NCBI GenBank assembly: GCA_016781485.1
Contig: JADDQH010000003.1
Span: 5,384-69,383 of the forward strand
DNA: 64,000 nucleotides
Direction: 5' to 3'
DNA from: Chloroflexota bacterium
GTDB taxonomy: Bacteria > Chloroflexota > Limnocylindria > Limnocylindrales > CSP1-4
Position 1 is the stretch's first letter. Each line of letters begins with the position of its first letter. A model generated the notes under the pieces. The model saw only the letters and a program-made list of their open reading frames with translations, was not told the DNA's origin and ran no database searches. This document shows, piece by piece, positions 10,497 to 52,638 of the stretch. Made by a program: the position numbers and the translations under genes.

Positions 10497-11648
10497 TCAG
10501 GCGCAGATGGTCTCGTACGCCCTTCGAAGCAGCGCGGCGGCGGACGCCTGCTCGACCGCCACCAGGAAGTTGTCCGCGCGTCCGGGCGCGATGAAGCTGC
10601 CCCGGAGGCCGGAGAGCGCCGCCGCACTTCCGATGTGTTGCCTCAGCTCGTCGCCGGCTCCCGCGGACCGGAATAGCGCGTAGAGGCGGTCGACGGCGTC
10701 GGCGACGGACGTGGCGGCGAGCGCCTGGACGATCAGGGCCGCGCGGTCGGGAAACTCCTCGCCGACCTCGCGCAGGATCTCGGGAAGCGTCAGGCTGCAG
10801 GCGATCCCGTGCTGCACGCCAAGCTCCGCGGTCAGCGGATACGAGATCGAGTGCGCGAGCGCCGTCCGGGTATTGCTCATCGCCAGCCCGGCGACCAGCG
10901 CCGCCGAGGCGAGCCGCTCGCGTGCATCGGGATCAGCGGGCGACTCGAGGACGGCTCTCAACGCGTCCGGGATGAGGCCGATCGCACGGATCGCAAGCGC
11001 GTCCGAGATCGGATTCGACGCACGGTTCCAGATCGCCTCCATGGCATGTGACAGCGCGTCGAACGCGGTCGCGACCGTTGTCCTGCGCGGCACGCTGTGC
11101 GTGAGCAACGGATCGACGATGGCCGACTCCGGGTAAAGGCGGGGATGCGAGATCGAGTACTTCTTCCCGGTCCTCTCATCCCAGATCGTGCCCCACATCG
11201 TCACCTCGCTGCCGGTGCCTGCCGTGGTCGGGATGGCAAGGATCGCGGGAGGAAGGAAGTCGGCGGGGAACGGCCCGCCCTCCCTGAGGTGCGCCGAAAG
11301 CCAGGCGTCGGTGCCCGCGGCATCCTGGGCCGCGACCGCCTTCGCGGTGTCGATGACGCTCCCGCCGCCGATGGCCACGATCAGCTCCGCGTCGGCTGCC
11401 CGGACCTCCTCGAAGGCCGTCGTGCACGAGAGGACCGTGGGGTTCGGCGTGACGGCGGTGTACGTCGCGACGACCAGGTCGCCCAGCGCGTTCTCGACCG
11501 TGCGGAGCACGCCGCGGCGGGCCATCCCGTCGGACGTGAGGACGATGGTGCGACGGGACCGGGCGAGCTCCGCCAGCGCGCTCAGCGCGCCCGGGCCGAA
11601 GCGGATATGTACCGGGTTGTGGAAGGTCCTGGTTCGCCCGTCGGTCAA
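10497..11648 (-). CDS. Group III iron-containing alcohol dehydrogenase, predicted phosphonoacetaldehyde reductase (PhpC/FomC/Pdh-like)
   Basis: Fe-ADH fold signatures (GGGSVIDTAK, metal-binding His residues); last gene of the phosphonate operon; 4-nt overlap with ppd. Confidence 0.7.
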   Translation of the reverse strand: MTDGRTRTFHNPVHIRFGPGALSALAELARSRRTIVLTSDGMARRGVLRTVENALGDLVVATYTAVTPNPTVLSCTTAFEEVRAADAELIVAIGGGSVIDTAKAVAAQDAAGTDAWLSAHLREGGPFPADFLPPAILAIPTTAGTGSEVTMWGTIWDERTGKKYSISHPRLYPESAIVDPLLTHSVPRRTTVATAFDALSHAMEAIWNRASNPISDALAIRAIGLIPDALRAVLESPADPDARERLASAALVAGLAMSNTRTALAHSISYPLTAELGVQHGIACSLTLPEILREVGEEFPDRAALIVQALAATSVADAVDRLYALFRSAGAGDELRQHIGSAAALSGLRGSFIAPGRADNFLVAVEQASAAALLRRAYETICA

Positions 11649-12796
11649 CCGGGGAACCAGGACATGAACTGCTCCCTGACCTCGGCAGGCGCGTGGGCTG
11701 GCCGCCCGAGCTCCGGCGCTGAGCCGAGCGCGACCTTCACGTGCACGAGGTTGGGTCCGGTCGTGTTCATGCCCTCGGTGACGGCCGCCTCGAGCGCGTC
11801 GGCGGTGTCGACGCGCCAGATGTTCCGATAGCCGCAGCCAGCCGCGATCGTGGCGAAGTCGATACCCGAGGACACGGTCGCCTGACCGCCCGTCGACTCG
11901 TGCGCTTCGTTGTCGATGATCACGTGAAGGAAGCGAGCAGGTTGGCTGTAGCCGATGGTGGCGAGCGTGCCGAGCTTCATCAGCGCAGCGCCATCGCCGT
12001 CGAGGACGACGACGTTCCGGCTGCCGCGCCCGCCGAGATGCATGCCGAGGCCGATGCCGGACGCCGTCCCCATCGCCCCCACGACGTAGAACTGATTTGG
12101 GCGGTGGCCGAGCGTGTACAGCTCTCGTCCGATCTTTCCGGTCGTGCCGATGAGCGCCGCGCCGTCTCCGGCCGTGTCGCGAACGATCCGAATGGCCTCG
12201 ATCCGCGGCATCCGCTCCGACGGCGCGACCGTGAACGTCCCGCGTGGCGAGGCGAGCGGAGGCACCGGGTGGCGTGGCTGCTCGCTCAGCTCGTAGTCAT
12301 CGACCGCGCCCTTCCTCATCACGAACGCGTACGGACGTCCGGTCTCCGCCATGCACTCCTCGGCGCGCTCGAGGGCCGGCACGACCAGCGCCGGGTCCTC
12401 CGGGAAGAAGTCCCACGGGATCCGCATGGTCGTCAGCAGGTCACCTGTGATCTGGCCCATGAGCTCGTGCTGCGGCTCATCACGGACGCCGGGTGCGCCG
12501 CGGTGCGTGGTGATGAACAGCGTCGGGATCCGGAACGTGTAATTGAGTGACGTGAGCGGGTTGACCGCGTTGCCGAGCCCTGAGTTCTGGCAGATCACCA
12601 CGCTCTTGCGGCCGGCAAGATACGCGCCGGCCGCGACGCCGAGCGCCTCGCCTTCGCTCGCGGCGCCCACGTAGTCGACGTCGGGGCTACTGATGACGTA
12701 GTTGATGAATGGCGTGAGGAACGAGCACGGCACTCCGGCCCAGAACGAGTACCCCCGCTCGAGCGCCGGCTGGACGAAGTCGTGGGCCTTGATCAC
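11645..12796 (-). CDS. ppd: Phosphonopyruvate decarboxylase, fused alpha/beta (TPP-dependent)
   Basis: TPP-binding GDGA...N motif region (VVLDGDGAALMKLGTLATIG...IIDNEAHESTGGQ). The ORF-track ORF starts at a GTG 36 nt upstream; the start is set at the GTG that overlaps the stop of the upstream gene (GTGA). Adjacent to pepM. Confidence 0.85.
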   Translation of the reverse strand: MIKAHDFVQPALERGYSFWAGVPCSFLTPFINYVISSPDVDYVGAASEGEALGVAAGAYLAGRKSVVICQNSGLGNAVNPLTSLNYTFRIPTLFITTHRGAPGVRDEPQHELMGQITGDLLTTMRIPWDFFPEDPALVVPALERAEECMAETGRPYAFVMRKGAVDDYELSEQPRHPVPPLASPRGTFTVAPSERMPRIEAIRIVRDTAGDGAALIGTTGKIGRELYTLGHRPNQFYVVGAMGTASGIGLGMHLGGRGSRNVVVLDGDGAALMKLGTLATIGYSQPARFLHVIIDNEAHESTGGQATVSSGIDFATIAAGCGYRNIWRVDTADALEAAVTEGMNTTGPNLVHVKVALGSAPELGRPAHAPAEVREQFMSWFPG

Positions 12797-14907
12797 GACT
12801 CGATGTTCCTGCGGCCCTTGGCGTCGTACCACTGCCTGGAGTCGCCGACCACGCGCGCGAGGTTGTCGCGGCCCCCGGCGGCGATCGCCGAGAGCTCGAG
12901 TTGTGCGTCGCCGCTCACCCGGCCACCGATCCTGAGGACGAGCAACCGACCGCCCTGGCCCCGATAGCCGTGCCGAAGAGACGGCTTGGCGTATGCCGAA
13001 TCTCCCGGTGCGAGGGTGTCCTCGTATCGGTCCGTGCCGACCTCCCAGACCATGCTGACCGGGGTAGTGCCGACGTTGTAGACGTACTGGTGGAGGCCGA
13101 CGCGCAGGTCCGGCACGGCGGCTTCGTCGCGCTGCACGTTGAGCTCGAGACCCTTCGAGAACGGGAGGCTCCTCACCGGCGTGAGTTCCACCATCTCGTA
13201 TGCCGGCGCCCCGTCCGGATAGCTCCAGCGCGGTGAGTCGGCGTAGCGCTGGACCAGGACCGACTCCTCCAATACGTCGGGCACGAGCAGGTCGCGGACG
13301 CTGACGCGGAGCGCATCGGCGAAGCGTCGGAGCTCGTCCTCGGAGGGCTCGTCGCTGCCGGCCTCGAGCGCCTCTATCCGCGCCACGTGGAGCGCGGCCC
13401 GCCGCGCGAGCTCGCCGCAGGAGAGGCTGAGCCCCTCGCGATGGAAGCGCAGGAGCGACCCCATCGCTCGCTTCCGATCCGAGAAGTCGAGCACCAGCCC
13501 CGCAGCCAGCTCCGCGCCCAGCGCCGAGACCTCCTGGCGCGTCTCTCCAGCGAGCTTGTTCCCGTACGTCAGCGCCAGGATGAGGCCGAGCTCGCCGCGG
13601 TCATTCCTCCGTGAGGCGAACGAATGGGGAACGAACGGCGCGATGTACATCGAGTCGCCGGTGTCCATGACCGCGACGTTCTTTCGCCCGTCCGTCCCCC
13701 GGTAATAGAAATTCACCGGCCCCACGAAGTACGTGAACTGGTGGAGGAAGTGCCCGTTGTTCCACTGGATCGCCTGGTTCTCCGGGTCGTTGTCCTCGAC
13801 GACGCAGAGCTCCTTGATCCACTCGGGCCGGAATTGCGACAGCGAGCTCATCGCGGTGTCCCGGTACTCGTAGTAGTCCGCCCCGGCGCGCGCCATCACA
13901 CGGCTGCTCCGCTCGGAGTCCGCGGCGCGGAAGATGCGCACGCCGGTCGGGGCGTCGTCGTGGAGCAGATAGAACTCGCGCGGGCTGACCGGCCATGCCG
14001 CCGTGGCCTTGTCCACAAGCGCCGGCGGCAGCGACTTCCGCCCACCGATGATCTCCTCGATCTCGGGCAGAGGAACGCCGAGCTCTGCGGCGGCGTCCTC
14101 GGGGCGTCGCTTGAGGTCATTCAGGATCGCCCTGAAGTTCTCGCCGGTCCGTACGTCAGAAACCACTTGTCCTCCCGCCTTCCGGAAATCCTCGATCGTG
14201 TCGATCTCCCGCCACCCGCCACGGATGGTCACCGCGCGCACCTCGTGTCCGCGGTCGATGAGCTCCTGGAGCATATCGGTCAGGTACGCACGCTCCAGCT
14301 GCGCCGCCGCCTGGAACGGCCTGCCGGAGTGCGCCGCCGAGACATCGGCGAACACTCTCCGAAACGTCTGCGCGCCAGCGCGGGAGAGCCGCAGGAGGCC
14401 GATGAACTCGCCATCCGCATCGGCTTCGTCGAGATGCTTGCCGATCCTCGTGATGACCCCGTCCGTGAGGGCCACCTTCTCCGCCTGCGCGATCGGATGC
14501 TCCACCCGACCCTCGTACACCTTCCTCCAGTCGACGTCGCATACCGCCAGGAAGTCGCCCGTCGCCGACAGGAGTGTCTCGACCACGCTCGGCTCGTAGA
14601 CGATGTCCGAGTAGCTGACGACCACGTCGTCGTCGAGCTCCTCGCTCGCATACATCAGCGAGAGCAGGATGTTGTTGTTCCGGTAATCGGCGTTGAAGCG
14701 CGTCCTGACGCCGGAAAGCAACGGCGCGAGCCGGTCCGCCCGATACCCCGTGACGACGGTGATGTCGGCGATCCCGAACTCGCGGAACGTGTCGAGCTGG
14801 CGCTCGATGAGCGACCTTCCGTCCAGCTGGAGCATGCACTTCGGCTGGTCGCGCGTCAGGTGTCGCAGTCGGCTGCCCAGGCCGGCTGCCAGGACGATGG
14901 CTTTCAT
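12793..14907 (-). CDS. Fusion protein: N-terminal LicC-like nucleotidyl (cytidylyl) transferase (~250 aa) + C-terminal HEPD/MPnS/HppE-family bicupin dioxygenase with two HTH segments (~450 aa); candidate methylphosphonate synthase
   Basis: N-terminus MKAIVLAAGLGSRL...KCMLQLDGRSLIERQ is the NTP-transferase G-loop. The C-terminal part has an XRE-type HTH (LSLSCGELARRAALHVARIEALEAG) and a cupin with GHFLHQ...(37 aa)...FVPHSF. The ligand pattern is H, Q at +4 and H at +42, with F at +14 and I at +36. Length and layout match the bicupin-HTH enzymes. Confidence 0.7.
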   Translation of the reverse strand: MKAIVLAAGLGSRLRHLTRDQPKCMLQLDGRSLIERQLDTFREFGIADITVVTGYRADRLAPLLSGVRTRFNADYRNNNILLSLMYASEELDDDVVVSYSDIVYEPSVVETLLSATGDFLAVCDVDWRKVYEGRVEHPIAQAEKVALTDGVITRIGKHLDEADADGEFIGLLRLSRAGAQTFRRVFADVSAAHSGRPFQAAAQLERAYLTDMLQELIDRGHEVRAVTIRGGWREIDTIEDFRKAGGQVVSDVRTGENFRAILNDLKRRPEDAAAELGVPLPEIEEIIGGRKSLPPALVDKATAAWPVSPREFYLLHDDAPTGVRIFRAADSERSSRVMARAGADYYEYRDTAMSSLSQFRPEWIKELCVVEDNDPENQAIQWNNGHFLHQFTYFVGPVNFYYRGTDGRKNVAVMDTGDSMYIAPFVPHSFASRRNDRGELGLILALTYGNKLAGETRQEVSALGAELAAGLVLDFSDRKRAMGSLLRFHREGLSLSCGELARRAALHVARIEALEAGSDEPSEDELRRFADALRVSVRDLLVPDVLEESVLVQRYADSPRWSYPDGAPAYEMVELTPVRSLPFSKGLELNVQRDEAAVPDLRVGLHQYVYNVGTTPVSMVWEVGTDRYEDTLAPGDSAYAKPSLRHGYRGQGGRLLVLRIGGRVSGDAQLELSAIAAGGRDNLARVVGDSRQWYDAKGRRNIES

Positions 14908-14913
14908 GCTCCG

Positions 14914-16545
14914 TCACCGATACTGTCCGGCGCCGCCGAAATTCGACGCAGCGACGACGTCGTGCATGTCGTCCACGTCCAGCCAGTGGCCGCGGACGTA
15001 GACGACTTCGACCCGCCTGCCGCGCGCGAGGAGCGCATCGAAGACGTCCGCCATCCGCATGGTACGCGCGGCGCCGGTCGCCATCAGCTCCGTGCCCAGC
15101 TCCTTCAGCTGCTCCAGGCCCGACGCGGACATCTTCAGCAGGCCGATCCACTCGCCGTGCACCTGACCGGGCGGGAGCGTCGTGCTCATCTTCCCGAGGT
15201 GGGCGGTCTGATCGAACTCGCGCCAGTGGAACGGGCGGTCGCAGCACACCAGATCGCGGTAGCCGTCGCGATGCGCATCGTTCGCCGAGTCGGGGTCGAC
15301 GGCGATGCAGAAGTCCGAGTCCGACTCGAACAGCTGCATGGGGATGAACTTCTGGAAGAGGACGTCGCCGTACGCCACCAGGACCGGGCCAGAGAGCCCC
15401 TCCAACCCCTTGAACAGCGAGAAGGCCTCCTGGGTCGTGGCGTGCTCGTCGTTGTCGACGTACCGCGTATTCGGAAGCTGCAGTGCTTCCTTCCGGTAGC
15501 CGCGCACGACCGTGACGTCCTTGATGCCGATGCTCGTGAACGTCTCCATCATCCGCTCGAGAAGCGGCTTGCCCGCGATCTCGACCATCGCCTTCGGCCG
15601 ATCCTCCGTCAGGACGCCGAGCTCCTTGCCTCGGCCCGCCGCGAGCACGAGGGCCTGGGGCGCGCCCTGCCGAGCGGGGAGGTAGCGGCGCTCAGCCTCC
15701 TCCAGCTCGCCTGCGCCCTGGATCCGGAAGACCTCGCGGACGCTCACGATGCGGTCCTCGATATTCAGCAGGCTCTCCTCGCGAGAGAGCTGCTGCGCCG
15801 TCTGCTGCATCGCGGTGAGTGCGCTCCGCATGAGGTGGTTCGCCCAGATGACGACGCTGATGCCGGCCTCACGGAACACCTCGGTCGGCGTGCTGTAGTA
15901 CGTGGTCGGCACGATGACGACCGGGCAGCGGTCGCCCCATTCCTTCTTGAACGCGAGGATCTCGTCCGGGCGTGAGAGCTTGCTGTGGATGAGGATCGCG
16001 TCAGCGCCGGCGCGGTGATAGGCATCGGCCCTCCTGAGCGCCTCGGAAAGGCCCCAGCCGGCGATCAGCGCTTCCACGCGGGCGACGATGCTGAAGCTGT
16101 CATCGCGCTGCGCGTCCTTCCCCGCCTTGATCTTTCCGCAGAACTCGTCCACGTCGGCGAGTGGCTGGTTCTCGCCGATGAAGCTATTCGTCTTCGGGAA
16201 CAGTTTGTCCTCGATGGCCACTCCCGCCACGCCACGGGTCTCGAGCTTCTGGACGAGCCGCCGCATGTTGTTGAAGTTCCCGTAGCCCGTGTCACCGTCG
16301 AGCAGGATGGGGATCTTCACGGCATCGGTGACGAACTCGAGCAGGTCGAGCACCTGCGTCCAGCTCATCTCGTTGTTGTCGCGTACGCCCATCGAGGCGG
16401 AGATGGAGAGGCCGCTTCCCCACAGCCCTTCGAATCCCGCTTCCTCGGCGACCTTGGCGCTCAGGCCGTTGTGGGCCTCCATGAGGAAACTCAGCCCGTC
16501 GCGCGTCAGGATCTCTCGCAGCGCCTGCGTCTTCGATGAGTTCAT
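14914..16545 (-). CDS. pepM: Fusion protein: N-terminal phosphoenolpyruvate phosphomutase (PepM) + C-terminal LicC-like nucleotidyl (cytidylyl) transferase
   Basis: Diagnostic PepM motif [13 protein letters not shown] (EDKxxxxxNS) in an isocitrate-lyase-superfamily TIM barrel. The C-terminal part [33 protein letters not shown] is the NTP-transferase G-loop. GGAG RBS 6 nt before the downstream ATG. Confidence 0.85.
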
Positions 16546-17720
16546 GTCGCGACGTTTGCCGTGACGCGCTCGCGCGTCCTGTCCGCGACGAGGGCCACGT
16601 GGCTCGCGCCCACCGTCGCACTGCGCCCCACGTTGTAGACGTGACGTGCGCGCGCCTCTCGCAGCAGCGGCCGGAACCCTTCGCGCCTCGCGGAGAGATC
16701 GTCGATGCGGTCGAGGACAGCACGGAGGTCACCGGGGTCGACGATGCCGCCGAGCTCCTCGCGCACCGACTCTTCGAGCGGCACGAGTCCCACCCGTTCG
16801 TACTCGGGATTGTTGATCTTCTTCGGCGTGTCGACGAAGAGGACCGGACGCTCCAGGCCGAACGCGTACTCCAGGGCAGCTCCCGACCAGTCGCTGATCA
16901 TCAGGTCCGACTCGTGCAGCGACTGTTGTGCGTTCATGTCGGTCTCGACCCGGAATGACCGGTCGCCGAACCGCTGGGCCAGGGTCGTGGCGAGCTTCGG
17001 GAAGCGCCGCACGGTCATCGGGTGAAGGCGCAACACCACGGAGTGACCGGCGTCGACGAGTAGCTGCACGAGCTCCTGTCCGTACGGCGCCTCGATGAAA
17101 GAGCACGCTCCCCAGGACGGGGCGAGCACGATCCTGGTCATTCCGTCTTGTGCCGCCGCCCAGGGATGCTCGGCGCTCGTCCGGAGGATCGCGTCGAGAC
17201 GCCCGTAGCCGTGCTCCACGAGCTCCTTCGGCGGCAGCCCGTACGACTCCTCGGTGCGGCGGATCTCAGCGACGTGATGCGGTCCCACGCAGAAGACCGT
17301 GTCGTAGGCGTCGAACGCGCCCTTGCGATAGATCATGTGGGTGCTCACCATCGAATGGAACACGTAAACGTAGTGCACCGGGTGCACCGAGCGCTTCAGG
17401 TGGAACGACTCCAGGTCGGGAAGTGTCATCACGACGACATCGGCGTCCACGACCTTGAAGAACGCCGTCCGCGCCGCCCCCGCGCCGATGAAGAACGTGC
17501 GGATCCGAGGATCGTCGAGCGAGAGCACGGGATCGGTGGCGTCGGAGGTGACGTAGCAGATGCTGCGGCCCAACGAAGCCGTCAATTCGTTCACGATCGG
17601 CCCCAGGTGCGGCCAGTCGGCTCGTCCTTCCGCGTAGAAGACTATACCGCGGTCCTCCCGCGGAAGGCGATCGAAGGTCCGCATCGAGGACCACGCCGCG
17701 AAGGCATCCTTCAGCGACAC
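16542..17720 (-). CDS. TagF/TagB-like CDP-alcohol phosphotransferase (Glyphos_transf family), first gene of the phosphonate operon
   Basis: C-terminal region [27 protein letters not shown] resembles the TagF catalytic motif (xTDYSSxxFDYxxLxRPxxFY). ATGA overlap with pepM. Confidence 0.65.
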
Positions 17721-18208: not shown

Positions 18209-18553
18209 TTACCGCGGCTGGATCACGTCGAGTGGCTGCCGGCCACTGCGCAGCGCGCCGGCGGGGCGCGACTGCGTCGGCTCGATCTCCCCTGCGAGCC
18301 GGCGGAACCGCCCGACGGCTTCCGGCCGCAACGAGTACCAGATCCAGGTGCCGCGGCGCTCGCCGGCGACCCAGCCGGCGTCGCGCAGGACCTTCAGATG
18401 GTGCGAGACCGTGGGCTGGCTTACCTCGCAGCACGCGGTGAAGTCACAGGCGCAGATCTCGCCCTCCGCCGACAGCTGGCGGAGGATGGCGAGCCGTGTC
18501 GGGTCTGCGGCCGCCTGGAGGAGAACGACATCGGGGTCCGTCTGACGCTTCAT
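18209..18553 (-). CDS. arsR: ArsR/SmtB-family metalloregulator
   Basis: HTH region LAILRQL...CACDF...[18 protein letters not shown] with metal-binding Cys (ICACDF); start trimmed to the ATG matching the ~115-aa family length. Confidence 0.8.
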
Positions 18554-20674: not shown

Positions 20675-21922
20675 TCAGCGACCCGTGGCCGCACCGAGGA
20701 CGAGTCGGGCGCGCCGGACCGCACGCGACTCGCGGAGCGAGGCGTGAGCGCCGAGCCGGATCGGCGCGCCGGCGTTGTCGAGGTACAGCAGGACCCCTCC
20801 GGTCGTCGCGATCGCGCACAGGCCGAGGGCGGTCGTCAGGTCGACGAACCCTGTTTGGACCAGACCGGCGCCGAGGAACGGAGCGACCATCCCGCGCAGA
20901 CCGGTCGCCGCACTCCACCCTGCGACCGCGGCGCCACGGGATTCGAGCGGCGTGTTGTCGCTGATCACTGCCGAGATGCCGACATCGATCCCTGCGCTGG
21001 CCGCTCCCGCCGCGATCGCGGCGACCCAGAGGGTATGGAGGTCGCCCGCGATCGTGTACCCGAGCAACGATCCGAGCCCCAGCGCGCTTCCGCCGGCGAG
21101 GACCGCGCGAGGTCCTATCCTGTCGCTGACGACGCCCCAGGCGACGAACGAGACGGTGGTCGCGACCGAGATCAACGTGGCGACGACGGCCACATCGGCC
21201 AGCGACAGCGAGAGCCGGTCCACGTAGACGAGCGGATACAGAGGGACCGCCGCGATCATCCCGCCCCCGTAGAGCGCCTGCGCCAGAACGGCGCGGCGCA
21301 GCACGGGGCGCTCCGTGAGGGCACGGATCGATCCCCTCGCAGAGAACGCCGGCGCGTCACTGAGTCGAGCCCGCAGCCCGGCGTAGGCAGCTGCAGCAAG
21401 CATCCCGACGATCCCGGCCGCGGCGATGACGGGCAGGTCACCGGTCACGGCAGCAGCAACCCCGACCAGCAGCGTCGCGGCGACCGCCGCGCCGGCTCGG
21501 CCCGCGCCCAGCACGCCGAGCACGCGACCGCGCAGCCGGTCCGGGTACATCGCGCCCCAGAGACGCAGCTGGACGGGCGTCCCGAACGCGATCCCGACCC
21601 AGAATGCGAAGGCTGCGGCGACCATCACCGCGGGGATCGGCACGATCAGCACGGCCACGAGCGCGCCGGCGCCGAGTGCGCGGAGCAGCGCAAGCTGCCG
21701 TGGCGTCCGCGGGCCGATCCCGCCGGAGAACGCACCGAGGACGTTGGCGACGAACGGCGCTGAGGCAAGTGCAGCGAGTCCGGCAGGTTCGATCCCCGCA
21801 CGCCTCGCGACCGTGGGAAGGAGTGTCGAGACGACGACGACCGTGACGCCGACCCCCAGCGCGGCGAGCAGGTCGAGGGAAAGATTGCGCCGCATCCCGG
21901 CGGCGGGGATCTCGTGAGACAT
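20675..21922 (-). CDS. MFS transporter
   Basis: 12 predicted TM helices, Ala/Gly/Leu-rich; typical MFS loop 2-3 motif region. Confidence 0.7.
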   Translation of the reverse strand: MSHEIPAAGMRRNLSLDLLAALGVGVTVVVVSTLLPTVARRAGIEPAGLAALASAPFVANVLGAFSGGIGPRTPRQLALLRALGAGALVAVLIVPIPAVMVAAAFAFWVGIAFGTPVQLRLWGAMYPDRLRGRVLGVLGAGRAGAAVAATLLVGVAAAVTGDLPVIAAAGIVGMLAAAAYAGLRARLSDAPAFSARGSIRALTERPVLRRAVLAQALYGGGMIAAVPLYPLVYVDRLSLSLADVAVVATLISVATTVSFVAWGVVSDRIGPRAVLAGGSALGLGSLLGYTIAGDLHTLWVAAIAAGAASAGIDVGISAVISDNTPLESRGAAVAGWSAATGLRGMVAPFLGAGLVQTGFVDLTTALGLCAIATTGGVLLYLDNAGAPIRLGAHASLRESRAVRRARLVLGAATGR

Positions 21923-30169: not shown

Positions 30170-30374
30170 ATCTTTCGTGGTGGATGGGATGTGGAAAAGT
30201 CGGACGTTTGCACTAGGACTGCGCAGTACTTTCGAGCCAGACGCCGCTTCGGGCCGGGTGAGGATCCGTGGACGAACAGGACCATCGGGGACGGCGGTAC
30301 GGAATAAAGGGGGGTGTGCTGCGGAACCGCACCGGACCAGACTCCACCCGCCGATACCGAATCCGGGGAGCACG

Positions 30375-32129
30375 ATGATCCGAGTCCGCTCGCGCCCGCT
30401 GGCGCTGACCGCCATTGTCCTGGCCGCGGTCCTTACCGCGCCGTCCGGCGTTCTCGCCCTCGGTCCCACCGCTACCCCGCTTCCGGCCGACGGCGGTGCA
30501 GGGCGCTCCTTCAGCCCGGATCCCTACCCGACGCGAACGCTGACGCCCGCGTCCTCCGGGATCGACGCTGCGCGTGGCCGCGCCGAGACCGGCGAAGTGA
30601 CCATCGAAGCGACGACGAGCCAGTTCCCTCCGGGCGACGAGCGGTACCACACGTACGCCGAGATGAGCGCCGAGACCGCCGCGCTTGCCGCCGCGCATCC
30701 GCGGATCGTGAAGCGGTTCAGCATCGGCAAGTCGTACCAGGGACGCGAGCTGTGGGCCGCCAAGGTCAGTGACAACGTCCTGGTCGACGAGAACGAGCCG
30801 GAGGTGCTGTTCCAGGGGCTGCAGCACGGCGACGAGCACATGGCGCTCGAGATGACGCTGTACATCTTCAACCAGCTCGTGAAAGGCTATGCCGCTGGCG
30901 ATGCGCGCATCAGGAACATCGTGAACAACCGCGAGGTCTGGATCGTGTTCGCGCTGAATCCGGACGGCGCCGAGTACGACATCGCCGGCGGCTACTACCA
31001 CGGCTGGCGCAAGAACCGGCAGCCCACGCCCGGCTCGAGCCACATCGGCACCGACGTGAACCGCAACTTCCCGTACCACTGGGGTTGCTGCGGCGGCTCC
31101 AGCGGTGACCCATCGAGCTCCCGCTACCGCGGTCCGTCACCGCTCTCCACGCCGGAGGCGCTGGCGCTGAAGCGGTTCGTCACGAGTCGCATCGTGGGCG
31201 GGGGGCAGCAGATCCGGACGGCGATCGACTTCCATACGTACGGCCATCTCGTCTTGTGGCAGTACGGCTACACGAAGACCGACGTGCCGTACGACATGAC
31301 GAGGGCCGACCACGACGCCCTTGTCGCGATGGGAACGCACATGGCCAGCACGAACGGCTACACCGCCGGACAGGGAGCCGATCTGCTGTATCTCACCGAC
31401 GGATCCGCGACGATGTACCTGTACGGGGTCCACCGGATCTTCGTCTACACCTTCGAGCTCGACACGCACGACTATCCGGCGGACGAAACGATCGCCACGG
31501 AGACCGCCTCGAACCGCGAAGCCGCTCTGTATCTCATGGAGCAGGCAGGATGCCCGTACCGCGCCAGCGGGAAGGCGGCGCAGAACTGCGGGCCGCTCTA
31601 CGAGGACTTCGAGATCGGGCGCGGGTGGCGGATGGACCCGTACGGGACCGACACCGCGACGATGGGCCGGTTCGAGCGGGGCAACCCGCAGTGGACGAGC
31701 TCGAACGGCTACAAGCAGCGCGGCACTACGATCTCGGGCAGCGTCGACCTTGTCACCGGCCGGCTCGCAGGCTCGTCCGTGGGCACGTTCGACGTCGACG
31801 GTGGCGTCACGTCCGCGCTCTCTCCCGTGATCACACTGCCGGCGGGGAGCAGCTACACGCTCTCGTTCCGCTACTACTTCGCACACTCGCAACTGGGCTC
31901 CAGCGCCGACTACTTCCGGGTCAGCGTCGTCCGCGCTGATGGTTCGAGGAGTCGCGCGTTCCAGCGCCAGGGGTCGCTGAAGGATGTGGACGCGGCCTGG
32001 GCGACGGCGGGCATCGACCTGAGCACGTTCGCAGGACAGAAGGTGCGCCTGCTGTTCGAGGCGGCGGACAGCGGCACGAACAGCCTGATCGAGGCCGCCG
32101 TCGACGACGTGCGGGTCACGCGGCCGTGA
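30375..32129 (+). CDS. Secreted zinc carboxypeptidase, peptidase family M14, with a C-terminal beta-rich domain
   Basis: Signal peptide; M14 motifs HGDEH (HxxE), NPDG, NRNF, FHTYGH, YTFEL. Confidence 0.8.
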   Translation: MIRVRSRPLALTAIVLAAVLTAPSGVLALGPTATPLPADGGAGRSFSPDPYPTRTLTPASSGIDAARGRAETGEVTIEATTSQFPPGDERYHTYAEMSAETAALAAAHPRIVKRFSIGKSYQGRELWAAKVSDNVLVDENEPEVLFQGLQHGDEHMALEMTLYIFNQLVKGYAAGDARIRNIVNNREVWIVFALNPDGAEYDIAGGYYHGWRKNRQPTPGSSHIGTDVNRNFPYHWGCCGGSSGDPSSSRYRGPSPLSTPEALALKRFVTSRIVGGGQQIRTAIDFHTYGHLVLWQYGYTKTDVPYDMTRADHDALVAMGTHMASTNGYTAGQGADLLYLTDGSATMYLYGVHRIFVYTFELDTHDYPADETIATETASNREAALYLMEQAGCPYRASGKAAQNCGPLYEDFEIGRGWRMDPYGTDTATMGRFERGNPQWTSSNGYKQRGTTISGSVDLVTGRLAGSSVGTFDVDGGVTSALSPVITLPAGSSYTLSFRYYFAHSQLGSSADYFRVSVVRADGSRSRAFQRQGSLKDVDAAWATAGIDLSTFAGQKVRLLFEAADSGTNSLIEAAVDDVRVTRP

Positions 32130-33808
32130 ACCGCGCTCGGAGCGGCCGGCAGCAGGATGCCGGAGACGCACTCCCTGCTGTCCACCCCTCGCGGCGCCGG
32201 ACGTTCGCGCCGGCGTTGCTCATCGCCCTGGCCGTGACGCTCCTGACACCGCCGAGCCCGTCCGCGACCGCCGCTGCAGCCGATTTCCCGCCCGGCTTCG
32301 AGGGCTATCACACCTACTCGGAGATGGCGACCCATCTCGCGGACGTCGCTGCCGCGCGTCCCGGGATCGTCCGCCGGTTCAGTATCGGGAAGTCGTACCA
32401 GGGGCGGGACATCTGGGCGGTCAAGGTGAGTGACAACGTGGGGACCGACGAAAACGAGCCGGAGGTGCTGTTCGACGGCAACACGCACGCGCGCGAGCAC
32501 ATCACCGGCGAGATGGCGATCTACCTGCTGGACATGCTCGTGCGGGGCTACGTGAACGGCGACGCACGCGTCAGGCGGGTCGTGAACACGCGAGAGATCT
32601 TCATCGTTCCGATGGTGAACCCGGACGGCGTGCAGTACGACATCTCCGGCGGGGTGTTCCACTACTGGCGGAAGAACCGTCAGCCGAACGCGGCTACCAC
32701 GGCCGTCGGAACGGACATCAACCGCAACTACGGCTACCACTGGGGCTGCTGCAACGGCTCCAGCACGAGCCCTTCGAGCAGCCAGTACCGCGGCCCGAGT
32801 GCGTGGTCGACGCACGAAGCGCGCGCCCTCCGGGATTTCATCAACCGACGGGTGGTCGGCGGTCGGCAACAGATCAGGGCCGCGATCAGCTTCCACAGTG
32901 CGGGCGAGCAGGTCCTGTGGCCGTACGGGTACACGTTCACGGATGTTCCGGGCGACATGACGACCGAGGATCACACCGCGCTCGTCGCGCTCGCTCGCGG
33001 CATGGCCGCCGACAGCGACTACACCGCGATGCAGTCGAGCGGCCTCTACGTCACCGACGGCGATTACATCGACTGGGCATACGGGATCCACCGGATCTTC
33101 GCCTACACCTTCGAGCTCTACCCGCCGGTGACGAGCGACCCCGATCGGCACTACCCCGACGACTCGCTCGTCCCCCGCGAGACCTCCCGCAACAGGAGCG
33201 CGGTGCTACGGCTGCTCGAGAACGCCGATTGCCCCTACCGGGCATCCGGGCGTGCTCTCCTCGACTGCGGCCCGCTCTACGACGACTTCGAGATCGCCCG
33301 CGGCTGGCGCATGAACCCGAGCGGTACCGACACGGCGACGGCGGGACGCTTCGAGCGAGGGAACCCGGAGACGACCTCGTCGTCGGGGTACAAGCAGCTG
33401 GGCACGGCCGCGAGTGGCAGCCTCGACCTCGTGACCGGGCGCCTGGCCGGAGCGTCGGTCGGGACGCACGACGTGGACGGTGGGAAGACCTCCGCGATGT
33501 CACCCTCGATCACCCTCAGTGGTGGCTCGACCTTCCAGCTCCGGTTCCGCTACTACTTCGCGCATTCGTCCCTGTCCTCGACCGCCGACTACCTTCGCGT
33601 GAAGGTCGTGACCTCCTCGGGTGCGACGAGGACGGTCTTCCAGGAGTTCGGCTCCGCGGTGGATGACGACGCCGCGTGGACGAGCCGAAGCATCGACCTC
33701 GACGCATACGCCGGCCAGAGCGTCCGACTCCTCGTCGAGGTGGCCGACGGAAGCACGAACAGCCTCGTCGAGGTGGCGATCGACGACGTGCGGGTGACAC
33801 GGGAGTAG
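32126..33808 (+). CDS. Secreted zinc carboxypeptidase M14, tandem paralog of the upstream gene
   Basis: Same motif set (HAREH, NPDG, NRNY, FHSAGE, YTFEL); ~55% identical by eye to the upstream copy over the full length; ATGA overlap. Confidence 0.8.
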   Translation: MNRARSGRQQDAGDALPAVHPSRRRTFAPALLIALAVTLLTPPSPSATAAAADFPPGFEGYHTYSEMATHLADVAAARPGIVRRFSIGKSYQGRDIWAVKVSDNVGTDENEPEVLFDGNTHAREHITGEMAIYLLDMLVRGYVNGDARVRRVVNTREIFIVPMVNPDGVQYDISGGVFHYWRKNRQPNAATTAVGTDINRNYGYHWGCCNGSSTSPSSSQYRGPSAWSTHEARALRDFINRRVVGGRQQIRAAISFHSAGEQVLWPYGYTFTDVPGDMTTEDHTALVALARGMAADSDYTAMQSSGLYVTDGDYIDWAYGIHRIFAYTFELYPPVTSDPDRHYPDDSLVPRETSRNRSAVLRLLENADCPYRASGRALLDCGPLYDDFEIARGWRMNPSGTDTATAGRFERGNPETTSSSGYKQLGTAASGSLDLVTGRLAGASVGTHDVDGGKTSAMSPSITLSGGSTFQLRFRYYFAHSSLSSTADYLRVKVVTSSGATRTVFQEFGSAVDDDAAWTSRSIDLDAYAGQSVRLLVEVADGSTNSLVEVAIDDVRVTRE

Positions 33809-48202: not shown

Positions 48203-51200
48203 TCAGCGCTGGACGACCGTCACAGCCGAGGCTGGCGCCGAGTACGTCTGATCGCCGTAGAACTGGGCGCGATTCACGAGCAGCGTCCCATCGGCGAGCG
48301 TCTTCCACAGTCGCACCCTGAGGTAGACGGTCCCGGTCCCGTCAGTCGGGACCGTCCCGAGTGACCACTTCACCTGGCGTCTACTCGCGTCGTACGTCCC
48401 GCCGTTCGTCGCCGAGTAGAACGAGACGCCGGTCGGGAGGCTGTCGACGATACGGGCGTGCGCCGACGCGAACGGGCCGAGGTTCTTGTACGACAGTGCG
48501 TAGCGGATGACCGTCGCAGGAGCGGCCTCCGTGGGCCCGGTCTTCCGGAGCACGACGAACGGGTCGTCGGGGTCGTCGTCGCGGATCGTGCCGACGCCCC
48601 GGGCATCAGCGATCGTCGCGTTGACGGCGCTCGAGAGGTTGACGTAGAACGTTTCCGTCAGCTCCCGGCGGTTCTCTCCCTTGATCGCGACCCGGATCGT
48701 CTTGGTCACCTGCCCTGGGCTGAACCAAAGCGTCCCGCTGCGCGCCGTGTAGTCATCAGGCGCGCGCGCACTCCCGTCCTGGGTCGCGAAGCGGACCGTC
48801 ACAGTCTTGCCGCTCGCCTTGTCCAGCCGGACGGTGAAGTCGGCGTAGGAGGTGGTGTCACGCTCGGTGACGCTGACGTCGTTGATCCGCAGCGACGGGA
48901 GCGGGTCGTTGTCGAGGATCGTTCCGACGCCCCGGCCATCTGCGAGGATGGCGCCCGACAGGTTCACGTAGAACCGCTCGTTCCACTCGTCCGTCGTGTC
49001 GCCCAGCACCGGGATGCTGACCGTCTTGCGCGTCTCTCCGGCAGCGAACGTCACGGATCCGCTCTTCGCGGTGTAGTCCTTCCCGGCGCGTGCGGTGCCG
49101 TCGGCGGTCGCGTACTTGACCGTCACGGCGTTGGCGCTCGCGTTCGGCATCGTGAGCGCGAACGTGGCGTTCCTCGAACCCGAGTCACCCTCCGTGACGG
49201 TCACGTCGTTGATCGAGATCGGGGGATGACGCGTCCAGTCGAGCGTGTTCTCGAGCACCTGGTATCCCGTATACGTGAGGGCATAGTTCGCCAGCCCGAA
49301 CGGGTGGTAGTACTGCTCGGTCGGCATCGGGAGGAGTGGCCCGATGATCCGAACGCGCCCGTTCCCGACCTTCAGCTCGCCGAGCGTCACCTGGTCCGCT
49401 GTCGTGAGCCCGACCGTGCGCCCCCCCTTCTTCTCCCACTCCACCTGGTCGATCGCCCAGACGGGTGACGCGTTGAAGTCGGCCCCGCTCTCGTTCTGGA
49501 TCGCGTACCCGATCGGCACCGGTTCGTAGGTCTGGTGCCGATGGCCTTCGCCTTCGGCGGCGCCGGGCTGGTTCACGTTCCTGGCCAGCGGGTCGTCGTA
49601 GGTCGTCCCCTCGCCGTCCCGGGTGAAGCCGATGTATCCGGCGTAGACCGTGAAGTTGTTGATGATGTTGCGCGGCAGGACTCCCATGTAGGCGACGTTC
49701 TTCAAGGCCGCGTCGGTGAGCACGAGGTTTCCACCGCGCTCCGCAAAGGAGCGGAGTTTCGCGCCCCACGCGTTCCTCTCCTCGAGCGATCGCGCAGAGG
49801 GTGGGCGAGGCGGGCCAGCGTACTCGTTGGAGAAGGCGACCTTGAATTCGTTCGGAGGCTGCGTCCCGGCCCAGTTGATGATCCGAGCGCGGTAGTGGCC
49901 GACAGGAGGCGTCAGGATCGTGACGTCCTCGTTCCCGGTCGCCGTCGTCGAAGAACCCACGTTGAACCACTCGCCGGTGATCCTGCTCTGCCGCTGAAGG
50001 TACAGATCCCAGTCGTTCTCGGCGGCCTCCGGCGCCCTGAGCGTCACACTGAGCTGCTGGTTGTTGGATTCGGCACTCGCGTCGAATTCGTAGTCCACGT
50101 GACAGGTCGGCGGAAGCACGGGGTTCGTCGGGTAGGCACACGGGACAGTGGCGGCGGCCGTGAGGCCGTTCGAACCAGGATCCGTCGTCGGGTTCTTCGT
50201 GAAGCCCGGCTGGGCCGGTCCGGTCGGGATCGGCTCCGTGAAGCCGGGCAGCGGATCGTCCGCGATCACGAGGCTCGTGAACCGGTCGAGGTTCACGCTT
50301 CCCGTCAGGACGTCGTCGACGCTCACCGGGACGAGCTGGCCCGGGTCCATGTTCCGGGCGAGGTCGGCGAAGAACTTCATGTTGGTCGCGTTGTACGGGA
50401 GCTGGCCGGGATCCTCCCACGCCTTCTCCTGGCTGAACGTGATGTCGAGATCGACGTACCCGTTCGCCGCGCTCTGGGTCACGAGCCCGCCGGTGACGCA
50501 GATGCGCCAGCGCCCGGGGATCGGGAGATTCGTGTGGACGGCCTGACCCGCCTGGAGATAGACCGAGGACTGGTTGAAGTACCGGTTGATCTCCTGCCAC
50601 CGGTCCCTGTCCGTGGCACAGCGCGTGTTGTCCGTGGTCGTGTTCGGGTCGGCCTCCTCGGGCCGGTACCGCTCGAGCACTAGCGACGTGGTCGACTCCG
50701 CGCTCACGCCCTCGACGTTCGTGGCCGTCGCCTTACCCTCGACCCCCCCGTTGTAGACGCCGTCCTTCTGGCCCTTGATCTCGAATTCCTTCGTGTATCC
50801 GTTCGTCGGGTCGAGCCGCACATCCATGATCGGCTCCTGCGGGTCCAGGCCTTCGCCGGGCACCGGCGCCAGGAGCTCGCCCTCGTTCCGCAACACCTGC
50901 GGGTTGTAGACGTACCCGACCTTGCCGGGTGCACGGAACCTGGTCTCCTCGGGCAGCAGGCTGAAGTTGACCATCGCGTAGATGAGGCTCTTGTTGCCGT
51001 CGACATGCAGCTGCTCCGCGTCCTTCAGGTAGCACGACCCGGTGCCGCAGTTGCTCAGGTGCGACAGGCTCATCTCGTTATCGATCCCGTCACCGTTCAG
51101 ACCCAGCGGAGAGTCGATCCAGTCTCCGAGGGATCCCGTCACCGTGTAGTCGATCGTGTCCCATACGGTTCCCCATTGGACGCCGTAGACGCGGGGGTCG

Positions 51201-52468: not shown

Positions 52469-52638
52469 CAGGACCTCCCATCGCGGGGCTCGCGCCACGC
52501 CATCCCTCGGCGGTCAGGGGTAGTGCCATGCATGGCGCCGGCATGACCACGCCGCCGCGTGCTCACGCCGCCTGTCCTTCGGTTCGCCGGTGCCGCACGA
52601 GGTCGACGACCTCCATCGCGGCCGCTCTCCGCCGCGTC

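Follow-up and report, generated by a model that had tools for sequence, protein, structure and literature searches.

This study examined a 64,000-nucleotide stretch of a Chloroflexota genome (contig JADDQH010000003.1; hereafter the window) and an open reading frame (ORF) on its minus strand (12793..14907, −) that is predicted to join a nucleotidyltransferase (NTase) to a methylphosphonate synthase (MPnS). The results suggest that this one polypeptide probably carries two consecutive activities of a pathway that decorates the cell envelope with methylphosphonate (MPn), namely the formation of MPn from 2-hydroxyethylphosphonate (2-HEP) and its activation as a nucleotide conjugate. This reading is carried by the identities of the domains, their catalytic signatures, the structure of the operon, the recurrence of the fusion, and the orthology of both halves to stand-alone genes of MPn clusters.

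Architecture of the fused gene

The ORF encodes 704 amino acids (aa) followed by a stop codon in a single uninterrupted frame, and its ATG start codon is preceded by GGAG 4-7 nt upstream. The GC contents at the three codon positions were 0.69, 0.45, and 0.89, which is typical of genuine genes in a window with a GC content of 69%. Residues 1-246 (14170..14907, −) constituted a LicC/PntC-type NTase domain, as identified by Pfam NTP_transf_3, by matches to LicC and PntC-AEPT, and by Foldseek. A five-residue linker, QVVSD (14155..14169, −), delimited in an alignment of fused and stand-alone homologs, connected this domain to the MPnS module of residues 252-704 (12796..14154, −), in which phmmer and Foldseek resolved a helix-turn-helix (HTH)-like segment, cupin 1, a second HTH-like segment, and cupin 2. 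The Pfam search of the 704-aa product placed NTP_transf_3 at residues 3-118 and HTH_31 at residues 482-538 (13294..13464, −; E 4.4e-10), before cupin 2, and returned Cupin_2 below the threshold. In the AlphaFold2 (AF2) model, the HTH-like helices preceding the two cupins spanned residues 249-312 and 478-540.

The identical 704-aa product was called in two NCBI assemblies and in one independent Logan assembly. An assembly or frameshift artefact was ruled out by these three identical ORFs together with dozens of fused homologs. The AF2 model of the whole protein had a mean confidence score (pLDDT) of 86.6 and a predicted TM-score (pTM) of 0.66. On this evidence, the ORF is best read as encoding one polypeptide in which an NTase is fused to a full-length MPnS.

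The C-terminal module carries the iron site of methylphosphonate synthase

We compared the C-terminal module with the PDB sequences by using phmmer. Residues 252-699 matched residues 14-455 of the 457-residue N. maritimus MPnS (6b9s) with an E value of 3.1e-141 and 475 bits, and the hydroxyethylphosphonate dioxygenase (HEPD) of S. albus (6b9r) followed with an E value of 1.5e-93 and 318 bits. In Foldseek, the AF2 model superposed on the MPnS structure solved with 2-HEP and Fe(II) (6b9t) with a TMt of 0.95, a root-mean-square deviation of 1.9 Å, and 48% identity, and on S. albus HEPD with a TMt of 0.91. The module was 48-55% identical to N. maritimus MPnS, with no insertion near the active site, and 51-60% identical to stand-alone homologs, of which the closest were Thaumarchaeota-type MPnSs.

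The residues of the iron site in cupin 1 (13624..13752, −) were then read from the phmmer alignments to the PDB chains. H386 (in GHFLHQ), Q390 (+4), F400 (+14), I422 (+36), and H428 (+42, in FVPHSF) aligned column for column with H148, Q152, F162, I184, and H190 of MPnS; the residue numbers of MPnS and HppE were obtained by counting along the printed alignments to 6b9s and 1zz6. S. albus HEPD carried Tyr and Gly in the two discriminator columns (GHLLYQFTYFVGPVNYYF; DSVWGLPFAPH), the feature of class-II HEPDs, where the present protein has Phe400 and Ile422. The aligned segments of HppE (1zz6) were GHAGNE and VPH, counted as H138, E142, and H180, and because E142 aligns with Q390, Gln stands in the place of the HppE carboxylate.

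These alignments agree with an earlier reading made from the nucleotide sequence alone (the sequence-only reading), which had proposed that the module is a candidate MPnS. That reading had described the H-x3-Q...H pattern with the same four offsets, had given the MPnS numbers and the Tyr/Gly pair of HEPD that we recovered, and had noted the HppE spacing with Gln replacing the carboxylate. Its estimate of an MPnS-like part of about 454 aa, set against about 457 aa for MPnS, and its HTH-like segment before each cupin also matched what was found. The superposition of the AF2 model on the MPnS crystal structure and the alignment with MPnS, S. albus HEPD, and HppE, which placed the triad and the Phe/Ile pair as in MPnS and no Tyr/Gly at the discriminators, bore out the MPnS identity that it had proposed.

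The iron site was strongly conserved. When 47 homologs, fused as well as stand-alone, were aligned, H386, Q390, I422, and H428 were invariant and F400 was at least 90% conserved, and the HQFIH pattern was present in 117 of the 120 best homolog clusters (90% identity). K266, R340, Y348, and N383, which were invariant in the same 47 homologs, aligned with K28, R102, Y110, and N145 of MPnS, residues that we take to be its 2-HEP ligands. The 2-His-1-Gln triad and the Phe and Ile adjacent to the Gln are required for MPn synthesis (PMC11978286, restating Born 2017).

The features of other cupin families were not found in the module. The class-I, PhpD-type HEPDs (3g7d, 3gbf, and 4yar) matched the AF2 model in Foldseek with 21% identity and TMt values of 0.76-0.77, and six residues before the distal His, at a position whose equivalence was established by counting, the module has Ile422; PhpD-type HEPD has a 2-His-1-carboxylate triad with Glu176 (the entry 4yar is titled 'HEPD E176H'). 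HppE, the (S)-2-hydroxypropylphosphonate epoxidase (1zz6, 5u55), is a related cupin whose ligands are spaced in the same way (H138, +4, +42). However, it is a single cupin of about 198 aa rather than a bicupin, has Glu142 where the module has Gln390, shows E values of only 3e-4 to 3e-6, and acts by other chemistry on another substrate. The module, in contrast, is a bicupin of about 450 aa with the 2-His-1-Gln triad, the Phe/Ile pair, and a genomic association with the genes for PEP mutase (PepM), phosphonopyruvate decarboxylase (Ppd), and an iron-dependent alcohol dehydrogenase (Fe-ADH). The identification of the C-terminal module as a true MPnS is strongly supported by these comparisons, and the conversion of 2-HEP to MPn is the predicted reaction.

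NCBIfam contains no MPnS model and returned only partial NTase matches far below their cut-offs, which accounts for the uninformative name of the fused proteins at NCBI ('NTP transferase domain-containing protein'); JGI names several of them 'methylphosphonate synthase'.

Several homologs of MPnS and HEPD (P0048, P0156, P0202, P0216, P0221, P0225, and P0267 in our numbering) carried S/I, L/F, F/M, H/T, F/L, or F/S at the discriminator positions. Because these proteins have neither Phe/Ile nor Tyr/Gly, their product does not follow from the published rule.

The N-terminal domain is a LicC/PntC-type nucleotidyltransferase

The N-terminal domain matched Pfam NTP_transf_3 with an E value of 5e-15 and 56.5 bits against a cut-off of 27. 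LicC (1jyk) matched residues 1-170 (phmmer E 2.4e-16; Foldseek TMt 0.82), in agreement with the LicC-like domain of about 245 aa that had been noted earlier, and PntC-AEPT (6pd1) matched residues 2-273 (phmmer E 9e-9). The first NTase match in Foldseek was 6pd2 (E 5.7e-16), and 2xme matched with a TMt of 0.84. The NTP-binding signature G9-L-G11-S12-R13-x8-P22-K23 (14839..14883, −; general pattern GxG(T/S)Rx4-8PK) was read in the sequence; thus, both the signature and the fold are those of the LicC/PntC type (PF12804). No PF01467 match was found in the domain with Pfam, and the domain belongs to PF12804/PF00483 and not to the cytidylyltransferase (CyTase) type of Fom1.

R13, K23, and K157 aligned with R15, K25, and K153 of Tde-PntC, the alanine mutants of which retain less than 10% activity (Rice et al., PMC6697681). 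Among 32 fused homologs, G9, G11, R13, P22, K23, Y99-S100-D101, K157, E234, and D236 were invariant. Because the catalytic residues are invariant at domain identities of only 38-51%, the domain is evidently under purifying selection for catalysis.

Glu104 of Tde-PntC contacts the amine of 2-aminoethylphosphonate (AEP) (PMC6697681), and its column is occupied by Tyr99 in the present domain. This substitution argues only against an amine-bearing substrate, such as AEP or phosphocholine, and does not identify the actual substrate. Two NTases from 2-HEP or hydroxymethylphosphonate contexts carried His where the MPnS-associated NTases carry Tyr99. An assignment of specificity from residue 99 alone was rejected, since it would be only suggestive with two sequences, and since Tyr-type NTases are also fused to many other partners.

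The fused gene lies in a phosphonate operon

The fused gene was the third of five co-directional genes, in the order TagF-like transferase, PepM-NTase, NTase-MPnS, Ppd, and Fe-ADH. Three of the junctions were 4-nt overlaps of start and stop codons (ATGA, GTGA, and TTGA), and the fourth was a 6-nt spacer; the stop codon of NTase-MPnS overlaps the GTG start of Ppd (GTGA), and the stop codon of Ppd overlaps the TTG start of Fe-ADH (TTGA). These five genes form a translationally coupled operon.

Three of the neighboring genes are those expected to supply 2-HEP. The PepM gene (14914..16545, −; 543 aa) passed the NCBIfam PEP_mutase equivalog with 385.8 bits against a cut-off of 319.55, matched PDB entry 1m1b with an E value of 1.4e-120, contained the PEP mutase motif in its translation, and carried a divergent C-terminal NTP_transf_3 domain (match at residues 298-398). 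The Ppd gene (11645..12796, −; 383 aa, GTG start) passed the NCBIfam TIGR03297 equivalog with 413.2 bits against a cut-off of 312.5. The Fe-ADH gene (10497..11648, −; 383 aa, TTG start), the putative phosphonoacetaldehyde reductase that forms 2-HEP, was identified by the Pfam Fe-ADH family and had its best NCBIfam match to the Phn_Fe-ADH model TIGR03405, with 338.7 bits, below the cut-off of 423.7.

The NTase domain of the PepM protein (residues 297-543; 14917-15657, −) had GRGKE in place of the GxG(T/S)R loop, with Glu at the position of R13 and Thr at that of K157; its counterpart in the related locus L008 reads SRGEV. Because two of the three residues required in Tde-PntC are replaced, this PepM-fused domain, which is widespread, may be catalytically altered or inactive.

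The first gene of the operon (16542..17720, −; 392 aa) encodes a TagF-like enzyme of the GT-B type from the CDP-glycerol glycerophosphotransferase family, the proposed phosphonyl transferase. Pfam Glyphos_transf matched it with 32.5 bits against a cut-off of 22.1. Its AF2 model had a pLDDT of 91.9, and its best PDB fold matches were the TagF structures 3l7j, 3l7k, and 3l7m (E 1e-12); a sequence search of the PDB with this protein returned only noise. In all three of the homologs sampled (3/3), the TagF-like gene adjoined a PepM gene.

Upstream of the operon, beyond a 488-nt spacer, lies a gene for an ArsR-type HTH regulator (18209..18553, −; gene call, Pfam HTH_20/HTH_5; L001 and L003). A promoter-like site was found at 18105-18077 on the minus strand. 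The Rfam scan of the 488-nt operon leader revealed no RNA element, and the search for regulatory elements around the operon revealed no terminator-like site.

Recurrence and origin of the fusion

The fused NTase-MPnS was found in 43 of the 120 best clusters at 90% identity, and an exhaustive search recovered at least 8 fused proteins among the representatives at 50% identity, down to 36% identity and all with the F/I pair. The fusion is therefore real and recurrent, and it is common in sequence databases. Three Chloroflexia metagenome-assembled genomes (MAGs; L004-L006) contained the same five genes in the same order, and one locus (L011) retained only the fusion and Fe-ADH. A marine-type cluster with the fused NTase (L013) had an unfused PepM, a split Ppd, two sulfatase-family genes, and glycosyltransferases.

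The two halves were also found as separate genes. In L017 and L019, the operon comprises a TagF-like gene, a PepM-NTase, Ppd, a stand-alone NTase, a stand-alone F/I MPnS, and Fe-ADH; the stand-alone NTase was 52-55% identical to the fused domain, and its stop codon overlaps the mpnS start by 8 nt (gene pairs at L017 10984-13087 and L019 10934-13064). The Thaumarchaeota MPn cluster L015 carried a stand-alone NTase of the fused-domain subgroup, with 34-49% identity and 164-250 bits. The PepM-fused NTases formed a separate group that was approximately 30% identical to the MPnS-fused domain. In L013 (fused) and L015 (stand-alone), the MPnS-associated type was the only NTase of the cluster. To judge from these homologs, the fusion unites two neighboring genes of the pathway whose partnership is conserved in archaea and in several phyla of bacteria. 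It probably originated when the stop codon that separated these neighbors, already coupled in translation, was lost; in relatives, the two genes are still unfused.

The present locus and that of the Thaumarchaeota have much in common. The module aligns with N. maritimus MPnS from end to end and shares the same triad, the Phe/Ile pair, and the K/R/Y/N residues, and the MPnS clusters hold PepM, Ppd, Fe-ADH, and an NTP_transf_3 NTase, as in L015. By contrast, the present enzyme has the NTase fused to its N-terminus and belongs to a terrestrial Chloroflexota bacterium rather than a marine archaeon; its operon has a TagF-like rather than a sulfatase-family transferase, a single-polypeptide Ppd, and an additional NTase on PepM.

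Related fusions and clusters

An NTase fused to a Tyr/Gly, HEPD-type bicupin was found in P0208 (L020 7001-9133; 710 aa). Its NTase reads His-Gly-Asp, as opposed to Tyr-Ser-Asp in the MPnS-associated NTases, and the L020 cluster also contains a CTP_transf_like-PepM, Ppd, Fe-ADH, and a 1039-aa sulfatase-family protein. This cluster may represent a cytidylyl-hydroxymethylphosphonate pathway. The NTase subgroup of the MPnS fusion (41-49% identical, mostly with YSD) was furthermore fused to Fe-ADH, GT2, adenylylsulfate (APS) kinase, sulfatase-family, and PepM domains (P0210, P0211, P0255, P0263, and P0281), and in P0193, Fe-ADH was joined to an MPnS-like cupin whose discriminator residues are Val/Met. 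Domain fusion appears to be rampant in phosphonate-tailoring clusters.

The putative phosphonyl transferases also varied: TagF-like proteins were found in the Chloroflexota-type operons, and sulfatase-family proteins (alkaline-phosphatase superfamily) were found in the marine and Thaumarchaeota-type clusters (L013 and L015). A Bdellovibrionales MAG (L018) had both candidates without an MPnS and presumably decorates with 2-HEP.

Other features of the window

The genes surrounding the operon in the window were housekeeping genes (DnaE, the riboflavin operon, FbiC, GatA/B, LigA, PcrA, and GroEL). The GroEL showed 88-92% identity to proteins named as Chloroflexota, Candidatus Limnocylindria, or CSP1-4, and the window corresponds to contig JAGELI010000020.1 of the MAG GCA_017884105.1. 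Rfam identified a flavin mononucleotide (FMN) riboswitch (RF00050; 4726-4895, +; 83.7 bits) upstream of ribD, ribE/ribBA, and ribH, and a cyclic di-AMP (ydaO/yuaA) riboswitch (RF00379; 21932-22060, −; 59 bits) directly upstream of a major facilitator superfamily transporter gene (20675-21922, −). Two tandem paralogs of M14 zinc-carboxypeptidases were located at 30177-32129 and 32126-33808 on the plus strand, and a third paralog of 1431 aa with Calx-beta and DUF11 repeats was located at 48203-52498 on the minus strand.

Discussion

In the proposed pathway, PepM would convert phosphoenolpyruvate (PEP) to phosphonopyruvate, Ppd would decarboxylate this compound to phosphonoacetaldehyde, and Fe-ADH would reduce the aldehyde to 2-HEP. 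The bicupin, with Fe(II) held by His386, Gln390, and His428 and with Phe400 and Ile422 pinning the Gln onto the metal, would then cleave the C1-C2 bond of free 2-HEP in an O2-dependent reaction that yields MPn and CO2. Strong homology supports both the supply of 2-HEP and the formation of MPn. We infer the later steps, including MPn as the substrate of the NTase, cytidine triphosphate (CTP) as its nucleotide, the transfer reaction, and the acceptor. The N-terminal NTase would join MPn to an NTP, most likely CTP, forming cytidine monophosphate (CMP)-MPn and pyrophosphate, and the TagF-like enzyme would use CMP-MPn to attach a methylphosphonyl group to a hydroxyl of a glycopolymer in the envelope, releasing CMP, which is also the leaving group when TagF reacts with CDP-glycerol. 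That CMP-MPn is the donor for MPn esters and that the TagF-like enzymes are phosphonyl transferases is a proposal to which we give slightly better than even chances.

The closest published system argues by analogy for consecutive activities. Tde1415 of T. denticola (PntC-AEPT; 6pd1, 6pd2; PMC6697681), which we regard as a direct precedent for the logic of the fusion, likewise has an N-terminal PF12804 LicC-like cytidylyltransferase fused to the producer of its own phosphonate substrate. The two proteins share the NTP signature and the catalytic Arg/Lys/Lys, and Tde1415 was the best fold match among the NTase structures. They differ in that the partner of Tde1415 is a pyridoxal phosphate-dependent AEP transaminase, its substrate is AEP, Glu104 stands where Tyr99 does here, and the identity is only 20-22%. 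Fom1 of the fosfomycin pathway is similar in that it links a phosphonate-pathway enzyme to a cytidylyltransferase by which the small phosphonate 2-HEP is activated (PMC6697681). However, its CyTase belongs to PF01467 (CTP_transf_like) and, as the sequence-only reading had stated, is fused to PepM and not to a cupin oxygenase; moreover, its CMP-HEP serves as a handle for a radical S-adenosylmethionine methylase and not as a donor for envelope decoration. TagF (3l7j-3l7m) and the first gene of the operon share a GT-B-like fold and Pfam Glyphos_transf, and TagF moves a phosphoryl-linked group from a CMP-linked donor with release of CMP, which is the chemistry that CMP-MPn would need; the TagF-like subfamily of the operon differs in occurring in phosphonate clusters.

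Several observations weigh against consecutive action on MPn. The nucleotide and the phosphonate specificities of the NTase cannot be read from its sequence. Because the NTase subgroup has promiscuous fusion partners (Fe-ADH, GT2, APS kinase, sulfatase-family, and PepM domains), the fusion alone is no proof of consecutive reactions. In addition, a related NTase has a Tyr/Gly cupin of the HEPD type as its fusion partner, and since the F/I and Y/G fusions share the substrate 2-HEP and not the product, there is room for an NTase that acts on 2-HEP. A second NTase domain is present in the operon, on PepM, and the TagF-like protein is only distantly related to TagF (13-14% identity, TM approximately 0.56). 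The pTM of the AF2 model gives no confident interdomain geometry, and channelling between the two halves therefore cannot be argued.

The alternative that fares best is that the NTase activates 2-HEP, alone or together with MPn, and that CMP-HEP is used to decorate the envelope with HEP in parallel to MPn. The fusion of this NTase fold to both cupin types with 2-HEP as their common substrate speaks for this alternative, as do the fusion of the same subgroup to the 2-HEP-forming Fe-ADH (P0210) and the L018 cluster, in which a TagF-like gene accompanies PepM, Ppd, NTase, and ADH in the absence of an MPnS. Cytidylylation of HEP is also established for the CyTase domain of Fom1 (PMC6697681). Nevertheless, an NTase that competes with its own fusion partner for substrate is less economical than a sequential pair, and in PntC-AEPT, the published precedent, the two activities follow one another. 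In the HEP-only cluster and in the HEPD-type fusion, the NTases are members of other subgroups (29-30% identity) and carry His at the position of Tyr99, which is invariant in the 32 fused sequences, and the MPnS clusters L013 and L015 hold this NTase type alone. We therefore consider activation of 2-HEP unlikely, and activation of MPn remains the preferred reading.

An improbable alternative is that the fused NTase activates a non-phosphonate compound for the acceptor polymer, such as a sugar-1-phosphate, phosphocholine, or glycerol-phosphate, and that the PepM-fused NTase activates the phosphonate. The partial NCBIfam matches were all to sugar-1-phosphate and inositol-phosphate NTases, far below the cut-offs; CDP-glycerol is the usual donor of TagF-family enzymes; and the operon offers a second NTase. 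That second NTase, however, looks the less competent of the two, with Glu and Thr at the R13 and K157 positions; the MPnS clusters with an unfused PepM (L013 and L015) hold only the MPnS-associated NTase; and the best structural matches of the fused domain include the phosphonate-specific PntC.

The order of the two reactions could also be reversed, such that the NTase makes CMP-HEP and the cupin cleaves it to CMP-MPn without releasing free MPn, in a manner comparable with Fom3, which acts on CMP-HEP in the biosynthesis of fosfomycin. In favor of this order, nucleotidylated HEP does serve as an enzyme substrate elsewhere in phosphonate metabolism (Fom1; PMC6697681), the NTase forms the N-terminal part of the fusion, and two NTase domains are encoded in the operon. 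If true, the fused family would be a new kind of MPnS acting on a nucleotidylated substrate, analogous to Fom3. The cupin module nevertheless resembles enzymes that act on free 2-HEP: K266, R340, Y348, and N383 are invariant between the fused proteins and the stand-alone MPnSs, including the N. maritimus enzyme crystallized with free 2-HEP and Fe(II) (6b9t), and the identity to that enzyme is accompanied by no insertion near the active site. In addition, the NTase gene follows mpnS in L007 and L008. Reversal is thus very unlikely, and cleavage of free 2-HEP before activation of MPn is retained.

It is similarly very doubtful that the cupin is, despite its Phe/Ile pair, a HEPD that yields hydroxymethylphosphonate and formate or another 2-HEP oxidase: S. 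albus class-II HEPD shares the bicupin fold, the H-x3-Q...H triad, and the substrate, the product is set by subtle second-sphere effects, and some homologs have other pairs of residues (S/I, L/F, V/M, H/T, F/L, and F/M), but that enzyme is unfused and has Tyr/Gly, whereas the present module has the exact F/I pair, a far higher score with MPnS, and Thaumarchaeota-type MPnSs as its closest stand-alone relatives, and the Y/G homologs are separate entries (e.g., Micromonospora and Actinophytocola).

The sequence-only reading had suggested that the fusion couples C-C cleavage to immediate CMP activation of the product or, alternatively, acts on CMP-HEP. The first part, MPn formation followed by CMP activation, is the best supported, albeit still by inference, and the second is unlikely. 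Its statement that the fusion has no described precedent holds only in a narrow sense: we found no paper on an NTase-MPnS fusion, but the architecture is common in databases and the logic of PntC-AEPT has been published (PMC6697681). A literature search for the NTase-MPnS fusion, CMP-MPn, and mpnS in Chloroflexota or soil returned nothing relevant, although its coverage was incomplete and is no proof of novelty, and the fusion is unmentioned in Rice 2019, Li & Horsman 2022, Acker 2022, and Lockwood 2022. The new elements would be the covalent joining of NTase and MPnS, the association with a TagF-like protein, and the occurrence in a terrestrial Chloroflexota host, and the enzymes should follow the chemistry of known families.

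In the organisms that produce it, MPn is believed to be attached to macromolecules as an ester (PMC9381506). The fusion provides genomic 'Rosetta-stone' evidence that the LicC-like NTase of these clusters works with MPnS, and it points to CMP-MPn as the donor for such esters. We know of no activated donor or transferase for MPn esters that has been identified biochemically. The recurrence of the TagF-like family in PepM clusters nominates its members as phosphonyl transferases, and the fused protein offers a single soluble protein in which the conversion of 2-HEP to CMP-MPn could be examined in one pot. To our knowledge, MPnS is the only known biological source of MPn, and methane in oxygenated water has been proposed to come from the cleavage of MPn by carbon-phosphorus lyase. 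Work on mpnS to date has been mostly marine, and with the present operon a complete MPn pathway can be assigned to the Limnocylindria, Chloroflexota that are abundant in soil. If the reading of CMP-MPn as the donor and of the TagF-like enzyme as the transferase is true, MPn, the precursor of methane, would have a terrestrial source in soil Chloroflexota.

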